IMG/VR virus record: IMGVR_UViG_2531839179_000017
Source of the DNA: a virus
Lineage: Duplodnaviria; Heunggongvirae; Uroviricota; Caudoviricetes
Strand: one strand, 5' to 3'
Length of the DNA stretch: 14,423 bases
The translations under genes were made by a program, and so were the position numbers. Position 1 is the stretch's first letter. Every line of letters starts with the position of its first letter. Below, in pieces: positions 1-11,962 of this stretch. The notes under the pieces were generated by a model. The model was not told the origin of the DNA. It saw nothing but the letters and a program-made list of their open reading frames with translations, and did not search any database.

Positions 1-165
1 ATGGCAAAGCCGATCATCACGCTCAATGGCCTAAAAATCGTCATTATGTTGGGAATGCTGGTCATTATTCTCTGCGGTATCCGTTTTGCCGCCGAGATCA
101 TCGTGCCGTTTATTCTCGCATTATTTATTGCTGTTATATATAACTTATTTCACATAACACGTTGA
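1..165 (+). pseudogene. Truncated 5' fragment of a host inner-membrane protein gene (AI-2E/PerM-type transporter-like N-terminus); 54 codons then stop
   Basis: ATG at nt 1; translation [45 protein letters not shown] is a hydrophobic transmembrane N-terminus that I recall as TqsA/YdgG-like (recall only, not verifiable here). From about nt 136 the frame runs into AT-rich sequence (IYNLFHITR) and stops at 163-165. Absent from the ORF track because it is under 60 aa. Confidence 0.5.
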
Positions 166-496
166 TTTAATTAAATAATTTTCACCGCAAAAAGTGCCAA
201 AAATCGCAAAATGACTACACCAGTGACTACACCGTTCGGTGCACTGTATGAAACAACGTGGAACAAATAGACACAAGAAATATACAGGCGGATCATCTTT
301 CCAGGGGGAAGCGCACCAATTCATGAGGGGCGTTAATGTCGATATGGGGATCCCCACCTACCGGAATTTTTTTCCGGTTAAACGTTAATCAGGCTGGTGG
401 GCTTTACCTGTTCGGTAGGTGTTATGATTATCGTAATACCTTTCCCCCAATGGGGTAAAAGCATCAACCGTAACGAAAGTCGTTATGGTTGCCACT

Positions 497-609
497 GATA
501 CCCCAAATTTGGGTATCACGAGTAAGACCCAAAATCTGGGTGTTACTCTTACTACCCAAACTACGGGTAGTTTCCGTAGTTTCATGGTCGAGTTGCAGAT
601 CTGCAACTC
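497..609. repeat. Array of three related stem-loops (497-517, 527-541, 552-570) followed by a perfect 20-bp palindrome (590-609)
   Basis: GATACCC-CAAATTT-GGGTATC, ACCCA-AAATC-TGGGT and CTACCC-AAACTAC-GGGTAG share an ACCC-AAA-N-GGGT core; GAGTTGCAGATCTGCAACTC is self-complementary. The ORFs called here overlap one another in three frames, so the region is treated as non-coding. Confidence 0.6.
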
Positions 610-902
610 CCCCATTAACCACAGGCGAATTTCCGCCTTCGGTCATTCCTTAATCATCTGCGTAATCATAATGATTATTCAGCAAGCGCAATTTTGCACT
701 TTGCTTAAAGTTCAGCGAGTTACCGCGCCGACTTCCTCAAATTGAGGTTTCCGAAAATATCAGCGGGTTAGCGATTAAGCTGATCATTAATTAAACTGCG
801 AAAATTTCGTAGTTTGTGACTGTCTTTCAGGCAGCTTGTTAACAGTCCTCAGAAGCGAGGGATGTAGCCACCCATTTTTGGTCCGTCGGGAATATCAACC
901 AG

Positions 903-1184
903 TTACCGCCGCAACCGCTCCGGCTTCTTCCAGTGGTACGTTATTTTCTCCTTCTCCCGATACATCTCCACGCGGCGACGGTAGGCCAGCAACTCAAGAG
1001 CTCTGGTTCGTATGTTGCGCATATCCACGCCATTAAGTTCTATACCATCACGGCGCATCACCTCAGCAACAACACGCGCATAGTTTTCGGCTGTCACGCT
1101 GTCCGGCTGCGTGGCCTGTTCGTCAGCCTGCTGGCTGATTCCGGCAACGCGGCGGATTAATCCCGTTATTTCGGCTTCTGTCAT
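903..1184 (-). CDS. Hypothetical protein, last gene of the packaging operon
   Basis: 93-aa ORF; ATG at 1184 preceded by TGAGG about 9 nt upstream and placed 14 nt after the large-terminase stop (1198-1200). No family recognised. Confidence 0.45.
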   Translation of the reverse strand: MTEAEITGLIRRVAGISQQADEQATQPDSVTAENYARVVAEVMRRDGIELNGVDMRNIRTRALELLAYRRRVEMYREKEKITYHWKKPERLRR

Positions 1185-3199: not shown

Positions 3200-3244
3200 G
3201 CTTATTTTTTCGCCAGATTATTTTTCAAAAAATTCCCGTGCATA

Positions 3245-3310
3245 AAAATTTGAGGAGGCGGTCGGTGCCCGGCGGGGTCGGGTTTGTCCTGAAAACGCCC
3301 CCCACCCCGT
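3245..3310. other. Candidate cos / packaging-initiation region in the HNH-terS gap
   Basis: About 290-bp gap between HNH stop (3489) and terS start (3199) containing a GC-rich block GAGGAGGCGGTCGGTGCCCGGCGGGGTCGGG flanked by AT-rich runs. In HK97-like cos phages the cos site lies between the HNH gene and terS. Position-based inference only. Confidence 0.3.
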
Positions 3311-3488
3311 CATACAGCCTCATCAGCGATTGCGGAAACATTCCATAACCTCGCGGTCACGGTCGGTTAATCGCTTCGCTGTGATGCGTTCTGCGCGTCC
3401 TGACGCTTTATCTTTATGCCCTGTTTCCTGTGTCTTCCATGCGTCACGCTGCCTTATAAGTCCACGGATAAGGCGGTTTTGTTCCCGC

Positions 3489-6381: not shown

Positions 6382-7539
6382 TTAATCGTCGTCCTGTGGC
6401 AGTTCCAGAATCTTGATCGCGTTCGAATCCACCACGCCACCGCCTAAATATTTCTGCGTGAAAATTTTGATGAAGCCCGGCTCTGTGAGGTTGTCCGGTC
6501 TGGTGCGAACACCTGTTTCGTGATCAACAATGTAGTAACCGCGTTTGAAGTCACCCAGGGCAATAACGTTATCAGGCATAAACTCCAGATATTCGACCGG
6601 AAGGCCCAGCAACGTATCAGGATCACCCGCCTGTAAACGGTCGCGCCAGATGTAATCACCGTTCGCGTTCTTCACCTTCTGAAGTTTTGCCGCCGTCGTG
6701 GAGTTAACCACCCAGACCGCGTTTTTGCGGTATTTTTTACGTAATGCAAATTTCAGATCGATCAGCGGGTCCGCAGATGTCCACGCCAGAGATTCGGAAG
6801 GTTTAATTACCTGCAACGTACCAAAATCACGCTCTTTGTCGTTCTTCTCTGCACGGGGTACGGATAAAAAACCTTTTGCTTTTTTGTCACCGTCGCCCAC
6901 AACCAGATCGCTTTCTTCGGTTTCCGTGAAGGTGTCGCCAATCTCACCCGTCAGCCATGAAAGGATGTCCACATCGGAAAAATCCACGATTTCCTGTGTG
7001 GTGCGCGGGTACGCATAGACCGGATACAGCTTAATGCTCACCTCGTTAATCTGCGGGGTGCTGGTCTGTTCGCGTGTCTTACCCTCTTCACCGTGGTTAA
7101 CGGTCGCACCGCCAGCGGAAACAAGCTGCTTAAACTCGTTGCTGCTGATTTTCTTCACGGTACAGATGCGGCGCATGGTGGATTCATCCGTCAGCATTCG
7201 CATGATTTCGGTGTTCAGTTCGGGGATAACGGTATAACCACCATCAGCGGGAACGCCTGTACTTAATGCGCGGGTTTCACCTGTCAGAATGTAGTTGCGT
7301 AGTTCTGCGGGGTCAGTGGTCTGGCTGCTTTTACCTGGCTTGCTGCGCTCTTCGTCTGCAATGGCTTCAAGGCGGGAAATGTCTTTATCGAGGGATTCAG
7401 CTTTAGCGCGTAATTCGTCAAATTTTGCGCCCTCAGCATCGTTAAGACTGCGGTTTTCTTTTTCCGCGTTCTCCAGCATGTCGCGCATCTGATTTTTAAT
7501 GGCGGTTTTCTGCTGGCGTAATTCGATTATTCTCGGCAT
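6382..7539 (-). CDS. Major capsid protein (HK97 fold) with N-terminal coiled-coil delta/scaffold domain
   Basis: 385-aa ORF, ATG at 7539 with AGGA about 9 nt upstream; charged coiled-coil N-terminus of about 100 aa followed by an HK97-like capsid body. Confidence 0.85.
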   Translation of the reverse strand: MPRIIELRQQKTAIKNQMRDMLENAEKENRSLNDAEGAKFDELRAKAESLDKDISRLEAIADEERSKPGKSSQTTDPAELRNYILTGETRALSTGVPADGGYTVIPELNTEIMRMLTDESTMRRICTVKKISSNEFKQLVSAGGATVNHGEEGKTREQTSTPQINEVSIKLYPVYAYPRTTQEIVDFSDVDILSWLTGEIGDTFTETEESDLVVGDGDKKAKGFLSVPRAEKNDKERDFGTLQVIKPSESLAWTSADPLIDLKFALRKKYRKNAVWVVNSTTAAKLQKVKNANGDYIWRDRLQAGDPDTLLGLPVEYLEFMPDNVIALGDFKRGYYIVDHETGVRTRPDNLTEPGFIKIFTQKYLGGGVVDSNAIKILELPQDDD

Positions 7540-8769: not shown

Positions 8770-8975
8770 TGCCCACCTCTACCCACTTTTTTCGCCCACT
8801 TTTTACGTTTTCCCACTTCGTCCAACGTGGGAAATTTGGGATTTATATCATCTTGTTTCATAGGTATTTTTTTAGTGCCCACTTTTTGGGATATATACAC
8901 GTGGGAAAGTGGGTAATTTTGTTAAAATTCCGTTAAATCGCCCACCTTTCCCACTTTTAATGCCCACTTTTTACA
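8770..8975. repeat. Iteron cluster with AT-rich spacer: putative replication origin
   Basis: At least nine direct copies of a CCCAC(T)nTTT-type motif (for example GCCCACTTTTT at 8794, 8877 and 8962; CCCACTTTT at 8782 and 8950) plus inverted copies (GTGGGAAA at 8827 and 8901), interrupted by AT-rich stretches at 8838-8876; immediately 3' of the replicative ATPase gene. Confidence 0.7.
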
Positions 8976-10371
8976 GTGGTCCTACATCATCACCGTCAAT
9001 GTAGATCACGTCGTCTTTTTCCAGTTTGGCTAACCATCGTTTAAGGTGTTTTGTGTCATACCCCAGCTTTTTCATATCGTCACGTAACAGCGGGATCGTG
9101 CACTTGTCGCCGTGCTGTGTGCGTGAACGTATGCATCCCCATAGCGCGGTATGGTTTTCCGTCTTGTTGCCTGCCTCCTCGATGCGCTCCAGTTCAACGG
9201 GAGGGCGCGGCTTATCCACCACCACCAGCGACGTGATTAATTCACCGTCAGCGTCGGTAAAAAGCTCCACCACGCGTAAGTCATATGCGGCTTCTTTGAG
9301 TTCCTCCGCGTCCTTCATTTTGGTGCATGAGATAACCAGCGCTTCGCTTCCTGCGTCCTCCCTGCGTATCCGGTATTCAGCATCCAGCGAAGCACGAAAT
9401 GCACTGGAACCGCGCGCGCCTTTCGTCTCATCCTTGCCGGAATGGTGAACCACCAGCACCGTGGCCCCTGTGCGTCGTTTCAGTTCGTCACAACCACGGA
9501 TAAACGCCCCCATATCACGGGAATCATTTTCATCATTCCCACCAAAGCAACGCGCCAGCGTATCCAGAATAATCATGCGTACAGGTTTACCCGTTTCCCG
9601 CTCCACCTGACGGGCAGCGATAACCATTTCATCAACATCAAGCGGGGCAGCCGGAAAGATGGGGCGGTTTACCAGATACAGATTTTTCACCTGCTCATCG
9701 TGCACAACCTCCCAGGCTTTTACACGACGCGGAACACCTATACCGCCTTCACCAACCACATAGAGAACCGCACCATGTGCAACCCTGCGGCCTCCCCACT
9801 GGCGACCAGTGGCAACATGGCACGCCCACGATCCGGCAAGGAATGATTTATAGGACCCGCTAGCCCCGTATATGCTGCATAGCGATACCGCCGGAATAAT
9901 CCCCTTAACCACGTAATCCAGTTGCGTGTCGTATCCGGTAGATCCAACGCTCATCGGTAGCGTGGTTTTTCGCTGGTGGTTTTTTTCTTCCGCCGGCTCT
10001 TTCCCGCGCACCCGTTCCAGGTATTCGCGCCAGTTCTCCCGCATATGGCTGTGCATCCCTTCGGGGTAATAATTCGCATCAGTTACACCCGCCGCCGCCA
10101 GCTTGTGCGCAATGGCATTAATATTTGATGGCCTGATGTGGCCTGCCTTGTACAGCCGGACACAATAGCGCCCCTCGTCGATGATTCTCAGGTCTGCCAG
10201 TTCATCCAGTTGATCATCAGCCAGCACAACGGGAGGCACATTATCGCCAGCCAGTCGCCCGTCCTGTTCCTGCCACTGTTTCGCATGTGCCCAGGCATCA
10301 CTACCCGCAAAAATAATGACTTCGGTCATCTTGTCGTAAGGCTGTTTTTTTAAGTTCGGTGCGCTTTTCAT
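8971..10371 (-). CDS. Replication initiator ATPase/helicase (RecA-like, AAA_25/RepA-type) with C-terminal winged-helix-like region
   Basis: 466-aa ORF, ATG at 10371 overlapping the upstream stop (ATGA); Walker A GASGSYKS, Walker B-like RMIILDTLARCF, conserved VLVVHHSGKD...GARGSSA block typical of RepA/DnaB-like RecA-fold replicative ATPases. Confidence 0.8.
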   Translation of the reverse strand: MKSAPNLKKQPYDKMTEVIIFAGSDAWAHAKQWQEQDGRLAGDNVPPVVLADDQLDELADLRIIDEGRYCVRLYKAGHIRPSNINAIAHKLAAAGVTDANYYPEGMHSHMRENWREYLERVRGKEPAEEKNHQRKTTLPMSVGSTGYDTQLDYVVKGIIPAVSLCSIYGASGSYKSFLAGSWACHVATGRQWGGRRVAHGAVLYVVGEGGIGVPRRVKAWEVVHDEQVKNLYLVNRPIFPAAPLDVDEMVIAARQVERETGKPVRMIILDTLARCFGGNDENDSRDMGAFIRGCDELKRRTGATVLVVHHSGKDETKGARGSSAFRASLDAEYRIRREDAGSEALVISCTKMKDAEELKEAAYDLRVVELFTDADGELITSLVVVDKPRPPVELERIEEAGNKTENHTALWGCIRSRTQHGDKCTIPLLRDDMKKLGYDTKHLKRWLAKLEKDDVIYIDGDDVGPL

Positions 10372-11343: not shown

Positions 11344-11764
11344 GGTGTACCCCTCCGCATTTTTTTTCGTTAGAAATAAGCGTTCTTCTTTCCTGTTCAT
11401 CGCTCAGGAATACGCAGACCTCACCGCTAAGGCGTTTAAGTAAGCCGATGATTGCCCCTGATTCGCTGTCGGTCATCATGCCAGGGTAATCCTCTGCCAG
11501 TGCGCAAATAACTTCGATTTGGTGGGCGCGTTCTGCTGCCTGTTGTAGTGTGATTTCCTGGCTCATAAGCCTACCCCCTTGGCGAATACGGGCAGCGAAT
11601 ACCATCACGCAGCCAGCCGGGGATTGCTGGCGTGCTTCCTGTTCGCTGGTGGCCTCAATGGTAATCACGCGCGGTTGTGCCGTGCTCAGGGCGATAAAAC
11701 GCCAGATGTATTTATTCAGGTTGTGCGAGCCCCGCCCTTGCGGGTGTGTGGTATGATTTCTCAT
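11333..11764 (-). CDS. First gene of the early operon; N-terminal Icd-like (cell-division-inhibitor-like) region plus C-terminal helical domain
   Basis: Start chosen at ATG 11764 (GAGG 6 nt upstream); the track's longer ORF starts at a TTG inside the operator. Motif YIWRFIALSTAQPRVITIEATSEQEARQ...VFAARIRQ matches my recollection of Icd-like proteins of P4-type elements (unverified). Confidence 0.5.
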   Translation of the reverse strand: MRNHTTHPQGRGSHNLNKYIWRFIALSTAQPRVITIEATSEQEARQQSPAGCVMVFAARIRQGGRLMSQEITLQQAAERAHQIEVICALAEDYPGMMTDSESGAIIGLLKRLSGEVCVFLSDEQERRTLISNEKKCGGVHHVQ

Positions 11765-11861
11765 AGCTACCTCGATACTTTCGCTATCGTTGGTGGTTAG
11801 AAGCCCGGTTAGTGTTAGCGCACTGCCGGGTTTCGTCGTTTCTGCACCTTGCGCCAACAAG

Positions 11862-11913
11862 GTGTTGAACACCAATTTAAACCCAGGTGTTAAACACGTC
11901 AAGTGTTGAACAC
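11862..11913. promoter_or_regulatory. Triple palindromic operator (GTGTT-N-AACAC) spanning divergent promoters
   Basis: O1 GGTGTTGAACACC (11861-11873), O2 GTGTTAAACAC (11887-11897), O3 AGTGTTGAACACT (11902-11914). Minus-strand promoter candidate: -35 TTGACG (11902-11897), 17-bp spacer, -10 TAAATT (11879-11874), with O1 at the start site. Plus-strand promoter candidate: -35 TTGAAC inside O3, -10 CATACT (11928-11933). Confidence 0.65.
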
Positions 11914-11962
11914 TTATTTTTTTCCTGCATACTGCATTTGTTTTTTATGAGGGGTACACCAC

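Follow-up and report, generated by a model that had tools for sequence, protein, structure and literature searches.

The stretch analysed here, a window of 14,423 nucleotides from the IMG/VR virus record IMGVR_UViG_2531839179_000017, is an Escherichia coli capsid-forming phage-inducible chromosomal island (cf-PICI) of the EcCIEDL933 type, inserted in tqsA. The non-coding left arm of this satellite contains a 123-bp module that consists of three hairpins and a perfect palindrome, P1. Our sequence comparisons provide good support for the idea that this is an optional tail module of phage-inducible chromosomal islands (PICIs), built from a class of palindromes that phages keep inside their KilA-N genes, and the homology of the PICI copies to particular phage KilA-N alleles is equally well supported by these alignments. 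As to its role, we favour, with a rough probability of 0.38, an array of dyad-symmetric protein-binding sites that were copied from phage KilA-N genes and that would sense or titrate phage regulators. The likeness of the palindromes thus hints at an undescribed satellite-phage recognition device.

Palindromes common to a PICI tail module and phage KilA-N genes

A scan of IMG/VR for P1 returned many phage contigs of 30-57 kb that lack the rest of the module. In these phages, P1 sits inside a gene, in the domain-coding part for a KilA-N-domain protein (PF04383, E = 2e-26), where it encodes the peptide ELQICNS. The palindrome-bearing gene is located in the nin region, beside rusA, in SfII, SfV, the Stx2a/Stx2c phages, mEp460, ST64B and others (loci L126, L138, L146, L176, L184, L330-L337 and L338-L441; the locus search with the KilA-N alignment returned near-identical loci only). 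In a codon-agnostic scan with the pattern NEQT, 16 nt, ELQICN, the codons were exactly palindromic in all 43 distinct gene contexts; at positions that the pattern had left unforced, the dyad continues to a length of 22 bp. For an unbiased sample, KilA-N genes were chosen by the VYAYAMWI motif only (84 distinct N-termini). Here, the perfect inverted repeat in the linker has a mean arm length of 7.8 nt as compared to 4.85 nt in synonymous-codon shuffles, and 28 of the 84 alleles reach p<=0.01 against such shuffles. Moreover, one palindrome family (ACCCAGA..TTTGGGT) encodes different peptides in different frames (TQNLG vs DPDLG), and we therefore conclude that selection acts on the DNA. The palindrome lies inside a hypervariable central cassette of about 130 nt, a few codons from its 3' edge. 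This cassette is 32-43% identical between genes, and its flanks are, in most gene pairs, 92-100% identical upstream and 88-94% downstream. Among 46 distinct KilA-N palindromes the arms differ (8-12 nt) and the centres are A/T-rich (GAATTC, AAATTT, AGATYT), with ten being perfect through the centre. Even between KilA-N lineages with a protein identity of only 36-74%, the P1 arms do not differ. The paper on helper-embedded PICIs counts KilA-N among the "Bro network" domains and leaves palindromic sites unmentioned.

Several dyads of the PICI tail have a counterpart among these phage palindromes: (i) P1, in its L003-type PICI version, is identical at 22 of 22 positions to the ELQICNS-encoding palindrome. 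(ii) Hairpin 1 has the arms CGATACC/GGTATCG in common with the KilA-N allele L368 and matches the L409 allele at 16 of 17 positions. (iii) Hairpin 2 is identical over 17 of 17 positions (ACCCAAAATCTGGGTGT) to the allele L409/L369. (iv) Hairpin 3 with its flanks is identical, in inverted orientation, at 23 of 26 positions to the second palindrome of allele L409, so that hairpins 2 and 3 both match one allele with two tandem palindromes. (v) Hairpin X, in the form found in the majority of the elements, agrees with the SfV-type alleles at 20 of 21 positions. (vi) Finally, positions 358-368 are identical (11/11) to the KilA-N linker of the Ralstonia phage Heva; the hairpin at 358-380 is a degenerate relative of the KilA-N-type palindrome AACTACCGGAATTCCGGTAGTT and is broken in CFT073. 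The number of 8-mers from KilA-N palindromes is 33 in 492-614, with 1.1 expected, and 38 in 345-609, with 3.1 expected; none of 500 shuffles reached either count, and these 8-mers are at background level in the rest of the window and in PICI tails without the module. The homology between PICI and phage is confined to the palindromes and a few flanking bases. We define the class of intragenic KilA-N palindromes in the present analysis by format, arm identity and location. The format, arms of 8-12 nt around an A/T-rich centre, is found in P1, in the majority form of X, in hairpins 1-3 and at 358-380, and the arms of the PICI palindromes are identical to those of known alleles. As to location, the phage members lie in the KilA-N linker cassette and the PICI copies are non-coding; no KilA-N domain was present in the window proteins scanned.

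A blastn search of 330-700 against 50,697 phage records gave no match, because the pieces in common are only 20-25 nt long; against plasmids, the same query found PICI copies only. The stretch 166-902 is not discussed in the papers by which cf-PICIs and the PICIs of E. coli were defined, and full-text literature searches (the sequences, small RNAs of enterohaemorrhagic E. coli in the island, KilA-N together with palindromes or satellites) yielded nothing that describes the module or the palindromes within the phage genes.

The module is present at 801 places in 704 of 5426 complete E. coli genomes (13%), with a median of one per genome. Of 94 sampled loci with the module, taken from E. coli genomes and from IMG/VR, about 90 have a conserved gene for a 93-amino-acid protein beside the module, always in one orientation, and in these the module lies between 37 and 520 bp past the stop codon, in most cases at 37-47 bp. 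The host elements differ in their attachment (att) site (tqsA, fis, thiM, hpt, prophage late genes) and in packaging: they have their own HNH/TerS/TerL proteins and capsid, an Rpp/TerS-like protein, or captured lambda-like capsid genes. This distribution also bears on what the module could be in general terms. A dispersed repeat or miniature inverted-repeat transposable element (repetitive extragenic palindromic [REP] sequences, enterobacterial repetitive intergenic consensus sequences and similar) was rejected, given the 801 places in 704 genomes and the constant place beside the 93-residue gene, in one orientation, in the sampled loci. The repeats of a type III toxin-antitoxin RNA or of a CRISPR (clustered regularly interspaced short palindromic repeats) array were likewise rejected: the hairpins share only a core of 4+4 nt and lie downstream of the neighbouring gene, and no toxin or cas gene was found in the region around the module. 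The original prediction had judged a laboratory origin of the BamHI and BglII sites in the palindromes to be unlikely; the natural distribution excludes it.

Possible roles: binding sites, structured RNA or recombination junctions

We suggest that the palindromes are putative sequence-specific sites for dimeric phage proteins. Since the arms of P1 are constant both across the phage lineages and in the PICI variants, and the centre alone varies, sequence-specific recognition is preferred to structure alone. Binding by dimeric phage proteins is favoured for four reasons. First, the P1 arms stay constant in this way instead of drifting with compensation. Second, symmetry through the centre is seen in many of the palindromes, and an RNA loop would not require it. 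Third, the host gene of the palindrome encodes a DNA-binding domain. Finally, the palindrome swaps together with the allele-specific part of this domain. The most economical binders would be the KilA-N proteins themselves, each with its own site within its allele-specific cassette. Several different palindromes are lined up beside attP, where the late operon ends. Through them, regulators from several types of phage could be bound by the satellite, and the consequence would be either the sensing of phage lytic development or the titration of a phage regulator. It is tempting to speculate that KilA-N genes carry their own operator in a swappable cassette and that the PICIs of E. coli have pooled copies of these operators as a multi-specific, DNA-only phage sensor or decoy, a more specific scenario that we regard as rather unlikely in this full form.

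Several observations weigh against the idea of a binding-site array. HK106, a proven helper of EcCIEDL933, contains neither a KilA-N gene nor the palindromes in the half that was examined (24000-41468, including the nin region), so that induction or mobilisation by HK106 probably does not require the module. The proposal in the original prediction that the array might be a helper-recognition site thus gains indirect support from the match to the intragenic KilA-N palindromes and loses some with this phage. The module is absent from most PICIs, among them EcCICFT073. Of the copies of the 93-residue gene, about 40% carry the module; since the remaining 60% or so, including EcCICFT073, do without it, the module is dispensable. 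Moreover, nearly the same palindrome occurs in KilA-N proteins with a different upstream helix (L406 vs mEp460), which, as judged from these sequences, weakens a simple coupling of one protein to one site. Hairpins 1-3 of the PICIs have non-palindromic centres and tolerate one-sided mismatches, as expected if hairpin formation alone, or nothing, were selected. Finally, a place that is constantly 3' of a gene, and in one orientation, fits an RNA role equally well.

Such a role would be that of a structured 3' untranslated region (3'-UTR) at the minus-strand end of the AlpA-activated late operon, as a cluster of terminators, a barrier to 3'-exonucleases or the source of a 3'-UTR-derived RNA; the likeness to KilA-N genes would then reflect the common descent of a hairpin-forming sequence. 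We regard this as a serious rival, although on balance an unlikely one. It agrees well with the distance of mostly 37-47 bp (37-520 bp in all) from the stop codon and the single orientation in about 90 of the 94 loci, with the small hairpin directly after the stop codon, the stem of which covaries between elements, and, in the majority arrangement, with a strong GC hairpin X that comes after the module on the gene strand and has a U-rich tail. The predicted stability, which is extreme on both strands, points in the same direction. As compared to dinucleotide shuffles, RNA folding of 345-609 gives z values of -9.0 (plus strand) and -7.5 (minus strand), that of 492-614 -8.2 on both strands, and that of 440-660 -10.7 (plus) and -8.5 (minus); among 191 windows of 150 nt across the 14.4 kb, the most structured one starts at 451 (z -7.1, with a median of -0.2). 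The earlier claim of dyad symmetry beyond chance thus stands for 345-609 as a whole and fails for 345-400 taken alone, for which folding is not significant (z -0.6 and -1.0), so that folding energy singles out neither the 12-bp palindrome nor the 7-bp hairpin. Further strongly structured windows of 150 nt are found at about 11700-11925 and about 6976-7125 (z about -5.2 and -5.8); the former lies around the junction of two unannotated open reading frames (ORFs), in a regulatory zone, and the latter inside the major capsid gene.

The variation of the module speaks to both ideas. In the alignment of 37 distinct module variants, in which the divergence is too low (mean column identity 88%) for covariation to tell much, 89.6% of the cells pair in the four-hairpin structure, as compared to about 40% with the partners slid. 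Compensatory changes were detected in only three of 39 pairs (the outer pair and one inner pair of hairpin 1, and one pair flanking P1). The outer pair of hairpin 1 is T-A in five variants, C-G in 28 and mismatched, including C.A intermediates, in four; this compensation counts in favour of the 3'-UTR. However, many one-sided mismatches are tolerated, and the wobble-type changes have no strand bias (G.U vs A.C). The loops of hairpins 2 and 3 are invariant, and so are the arms of P1, save one G.T in three L006-type rows; the centre of P1 varies (GATC/AATC/AATT). These invariant loops and arms speak for a constraint on sequence at least as much as for one on structure. Thus, of the expectation that related elements would conserve the hairpins by covariation, the conservation was borne out, and the covariation turned out to be weak.

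The searches for known RNA features point away from the 3'-UTR in the same manner. Rfam gave no match in the whole window at the gathering threshold, including C4/isrK; C4/isrK, the P4 CI-type immunity RNAs, have been reported in some PICIs. With permissive filters, 100-1000 gave three matches at chance level only (E 2.4-5.1). The hairpins have no U-tracts, and Rho-independent terminators were rejected as an explanation of the array, since 100-1300 contains two terminator-like sites with 1.4 expected; only one of them, at 527-541 on the plus strand and with a poor tail, is within the array. Hairpin X of the majority arrangement is a better fit to a terminator, with a U-rich tail on the gene strand (UUACUUAUU), and it lies outside of the module; in the window, however, X precedes the module on the gene strand. 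Above all, an untranslated RNA gives no account of the same sequences, with palindromic centres, inside phage coding regions. The more general claim of a structured small RNA is neither shown nor excluded, as there is no Rfam match and little covariation, and the position is compatible with a 3'-UTR.

A second serious rival, which we consider improbable, places the palindromes at recombination junctions: AT-centred perfect palindromes would be cruciform or hairpin hotspots for junction-resolving nucleases, such as the RusA protein encoded next to the phage palindrome; cassettes would be exchanged there, and the tail would have grown by accretion of such junctions. The tail is indeed a strong mosaic, as a comparison of tails revealed that the att-linked segment 162-407 and the module at 492-614 move separately, with breakpoints exactly at the edges of the module. 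In four loci (L015, L035, L056 and L088), two modules 434 bp apart bracket an inserted cassette. The left arm also retains the 3' end of the 93-residue gene in two decayed ghost copies (708-725 and 756-773, with the real copy at 891-908), which are signs of repeated recombination or accretion at the tail end of the element. The phage palindrome, too, is part of a swapped cassette beside rusA, and A/T-rich centres favour the extrusion of cruciforms. Conversely, 8-12 bp is a short arm length for cruciforms to be extruded in vivo, and the KilA-N palindrome lies within its cassette near the 3' edge rather than at both borders. A purely structural hotspot needs no strict conservation of the P1 arms across lineages, and selection for evolvability alone is a weak force. 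The bracketed cassette of L035 (1060-1370) contains three GCGGGTTA repeats, an AT-rich stretch and three inverted TAACCCGC repeats, and looks like an origin-like or protein-binding element. In the closely related Shigella flexneri cf-PICI L005 (3500-3700), the module is replaced by an unrelated sequence of about 200 bp with four GTCAC repeats and small palindromes.

Integration, packaging and the rest of the element

The remaining candidates are sites for the DNA transactions of the satellite itself. The palindromes might be bound by the integrase of the element, by AlpA or by host factors that assemble the excision/integration complex, which we judge to be very unlikely. The region does adjoin the att junction, and the segment 162-407, with the 12-bp palindrome and the hairpin at 360-378 in it, travels with the att/int type and recurs in EcCICFT073 and the Shigella cf-PICI. 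However, recognisable arm-type repeats sit elsewhere, at 212-233: Two direct repeats TGACTACACC are found there, with equivalent repeats (TTAACTACACC, TGACTGCACC and GGTGTAGTTAATGGTGTAGTCA) at the same position in L003, L002 and CFT073, and it is these repeats, rather than the palindromes, that are short, direct, less than about 150 bp from the att core and co-varying with the integrase. They are therefore, as far as the sequence tells, probably the integrase arm-type sites. The hairpins are 190-450 bp from the core. The module itself, at 330-450 bp, occurs alongside integrases and att sites that are unrelated (fis, thiM, hpt, prophage late genes), and it is absent from CFT073 and L005, which share the same att arm. 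The original suggestion of integrase/excisionase arm sites is thus not supported for the hairpins.

We think it highly improbable that the module is the packaging site (cos or pac) of the satellite. The cos sites of E. coli PICIs have been reported near this same end of the element (PMC6739421, PMC10111431), and the two-fold symmetry of P1 is as expected of a nicking site. However, in the EcCICFT073 island, the tail of which lacks the module, the lambda-type cosN pair flanks rppA upstream of the 93-residue gene, at L125 2559(+) and 3298(-) in inverted orientation. We located cosN in this element and in 29 other loci; in the module-bearing classical PICIs it lies 0.7-1.3 kb from the module, beyond the 93-residue gene. 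The module is moreover common to different terminase systems, as it occurs in HK97-like HNH/TerS/TerL elements and in elements that depend on a lambda-like terminase, and blastn found it as a whole in no phage record. The packaging-site claim of the earlier note is therefore not upheld. In the window, no match to the lambda cosN core GGGCGGCGACCT was found at up to one mismatch. A G-rich spacer of 123 bp at 3200-3322, between an ORF for 60 residues (phrog_3173) and terS, is unrelated to the tail. Because it occupies the canonical position of an HK97-type cos, from the HNH region to terS, it is probably the cos of the cf-PICI. In EcCICFT073, CCGGACAT/ATGTCCGG repeats are located between the second cosN and rppA and are, by their sequence, candidate sites of the Rpp-TerS complex.

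A second replication site like crr of P4 was also considered and rejected, as the origin iterons CCCACTTT are unlike the hairpin cores and ACCCMAA is not enriched. The iterons CCCACTTT and AAAGTGGG occur in both orientations, with a spacing of about 83 bp, at 8780-8975 just downstream of the primase gene, and this cluster is probably the replication origin. The primase ORF (8971-10371) encodes 466 residues in the window, as compared to 605 in the otherwise near-identical O157:H7 locus L001, and the replication module varies between elements with the same tail.

The features of the left arm and the palindromes of the matching phage alleles are compiled in the table. All four dyad features that had been predicted at 345-609 can be read directly from the sequence, with the three stem-loops that have an ACCC...GGGT core at 497-517, 526-542 (extendable to 520-548) and 551-571; two further hairpins of the cluster, at 451-505 and 621-641, had been missed. 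The inner hairpin of the former is kept in the tails of L005 and L014. In most other PICIs, a perfect hairpin X, CCGARGGCGGAATTCCGCCYTCGG, is found on the opposite side of the module.

Table. Features of the PICI left arm, with coordinates in the window, and palindromes of the matching phage KilA-N alleles
Feature	Position	Strand	Remarks
5' fragment of tqsA (host autoinducer-2 transporter), interrupted by the element	1-165	+	att junction at the end of the fragment; RefSeq annotation of identical loci
Direct repeats TGACTACACC, two copies	212-233	+	About 50-70 bp from the tqsA junction
12-bp palindrome TGGGGATCCCCA	345-356		Conserved in the CFT073 and L005 tails without the module
Hairpin CTACCGGAA-TTTTT-TTCCGGTTA	358-380		7-bp core ACCGGAA-TTTTT-TTCCGGT at 360-378; direct reading
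Imperfect hairpin with 26-nt arms, inner stem AACCGTAACGA/TCGTTATGGTT	451-505		Overlaps the left arm of hairpin 1
123-bp module (hairpins 1-3 and P1)	492-614		Sharp homology boundaries; 37 variants aligned
Hairpin 1, TGATACCC-CAAATTT-GGGTATCA	496-518		Outer pair covaries (T-A vs C-G)
Hairpin 2, GAGTAAGACCCA-AAATC-TGGGTGTTACTC	520-548		One G.G mismatch
Hairpin 3, ACTACCC-AAACTAC-GGGTAGT	551-571		
P1, perfect 20-bp palindrome GAGTTGCAGATCTGCAACTC	590-609		
GC-rich X-like hairpin, AGGCG-AATTTC-CGCCT	616-645		Includes the GC-rich hairpin at 621-641
Two decayed copies of the 3' end of the 93-residue gene	708-773	-	
Hairpin CCTCAAATTGAGG	735-751		Between the decayed 3'-end copies
Small hairpin, about 20 nt past the stop codon of the 93-residue gene	869-883	-	Stem covaries between elements (GTGCA/TGCAC, ACGCA/TGCGT, ACCCA/TGGGK, others)
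Conserved 93-residue gene (phrog_1561)	903-1184	-	Last gene of the element; module 3' of the gene
SfV/ST64B allele palindrome ACCGAGGGCGGAATTCCACCCTCGG	Same KilA-N position		Matches hairpin X
mEp460 allele palindrome AACACCCAGAATCTGGGTGTT	Same KilA-N position		Matches hairpin 2
L409/L369 allele, two tandem palindromes			First with the hairpin-2 core, second matches hairpin 3
Ralstonia phage Heva allele palindrome AACTACCGGAATTCCGGTAGTT	KilA-N linker		Matches the hairpin at 358-380 of the window

Copies identical to 150-900 were found by megablast in O157:H7, O26, O103 and other strains. According to the RefSeq annotation of one identical locus, the ORFs of the window and Pfam, all genes of the element are on the minus strand. 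They are arranged in the order integrase, helix-turn-helix regulator, Icd-like protein, DUF4222 protein, primase, SSB, PerC, major capsid protein, prohead protease, portal, head closure and connector proteins, HNH endonuclease, P27-family TerS and TerL, and the hypothetical 93-residue gene comes last. Between this gene and the tqsA fragment, the left arm (166-902, 737 bp) contains no conserved ORF. The 93-residue protein has an invariant C-terminus (WKKPERLRR) and belongs to a very narrow, essentially enterobacterial family (38 clusters at 50% identity). Pfam and the PDB gave no relatives, the AlphaFold2 model is of low confidence (pLDDT, the predicted local distance difference test, 59.8), and a search of species-representative genomes with the protein found one locus only. 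In the complete E. coli genomes, the gene is present in 1932 copies in 1558 genomes.

Known systems and implications for PICI biology

The arrangement that we propose for the phage genes has partial precedents. The origin of phage lambda lies inside gene O, where four dyad-symmetric iterons in the linker-coding part co-vary with the specificity of the O protein among the lambdoid phages. The KilA-N genes resemble this system in having a DNA element within the variable part of the gene for a DNA-binding protein, exchanged together with the specificity part. They differ in having one or two perfect palindromes rather than four iterons and an AT-rich tract, and in that the sites are putative and copies are also arrayed in a satellite. 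A second precedent is Roi of phage HK022, a DNA-binding protein encoded in the nin region that Clerget and Boccard are said to have described in 1996 as binding within its own gene. KilA-N is likewise a nin-region gene, and the Roi product reportedly binds inside its own coding sequence. As a homologue of the palindrome-bearing gene, however, roi was rejected: it belongs to a different family, with an N-terminus that is not KilA-N, so that it serves as a precedent only, and no P1-like palindrome was found within four mismatches in 28000-40578 of HK022, which includes the gene taken as roi by its position and size.

For the satellite side, the EcCICFT073-type cosB, a set of satellite-specific sites that are read by the Rpp-TerS complex (PMC6739421), offers a comparison. 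There, too, a satellite has repeated short sites at the same end of the element, and those of cosB are read by a complex that contains a helper protein. However, the CCGGACAT repeats, which lie near the lambda-type cosN between rppA and the 93-residue gene, differ from the module in both sequence and place, and the module occurs irrespective of the packaging type. Terminators, REP-type 3' stabilisers and 3'-UTR-derived small RNAs resemble the module in that stable hairpins follow one another immediately after the final gene of an operon. In contrast to these, the module has no U-tracts, no dispersed copies and no Rfam match, its sequence is kept more than its structure, and identical sequences occur inside phage genes.

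The way in which Gram-negative PICIs detect phages is known only in part; in the literature consulted, activation of alpA by the helper is all that is stated. Arrays of dyad-symmetric sites are already known, and what is new is the connection of such an array to a widespread phage gene family. Whatever the mechanism, the codon-independent conservation of perfect palindromes in KilA-N genes calls for an explanation. If the tail palindromes are indeed binding sites for phage KilA-N proteins, a very common gene family of the nin region would gain both a function and a DNA target, and it would represent an unusual gene-within-site architecture under selection at the nucleotide level. A satellite device present in 13% of the complete E. 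coli genomes would then interact with several phage types via DNA sites alone.

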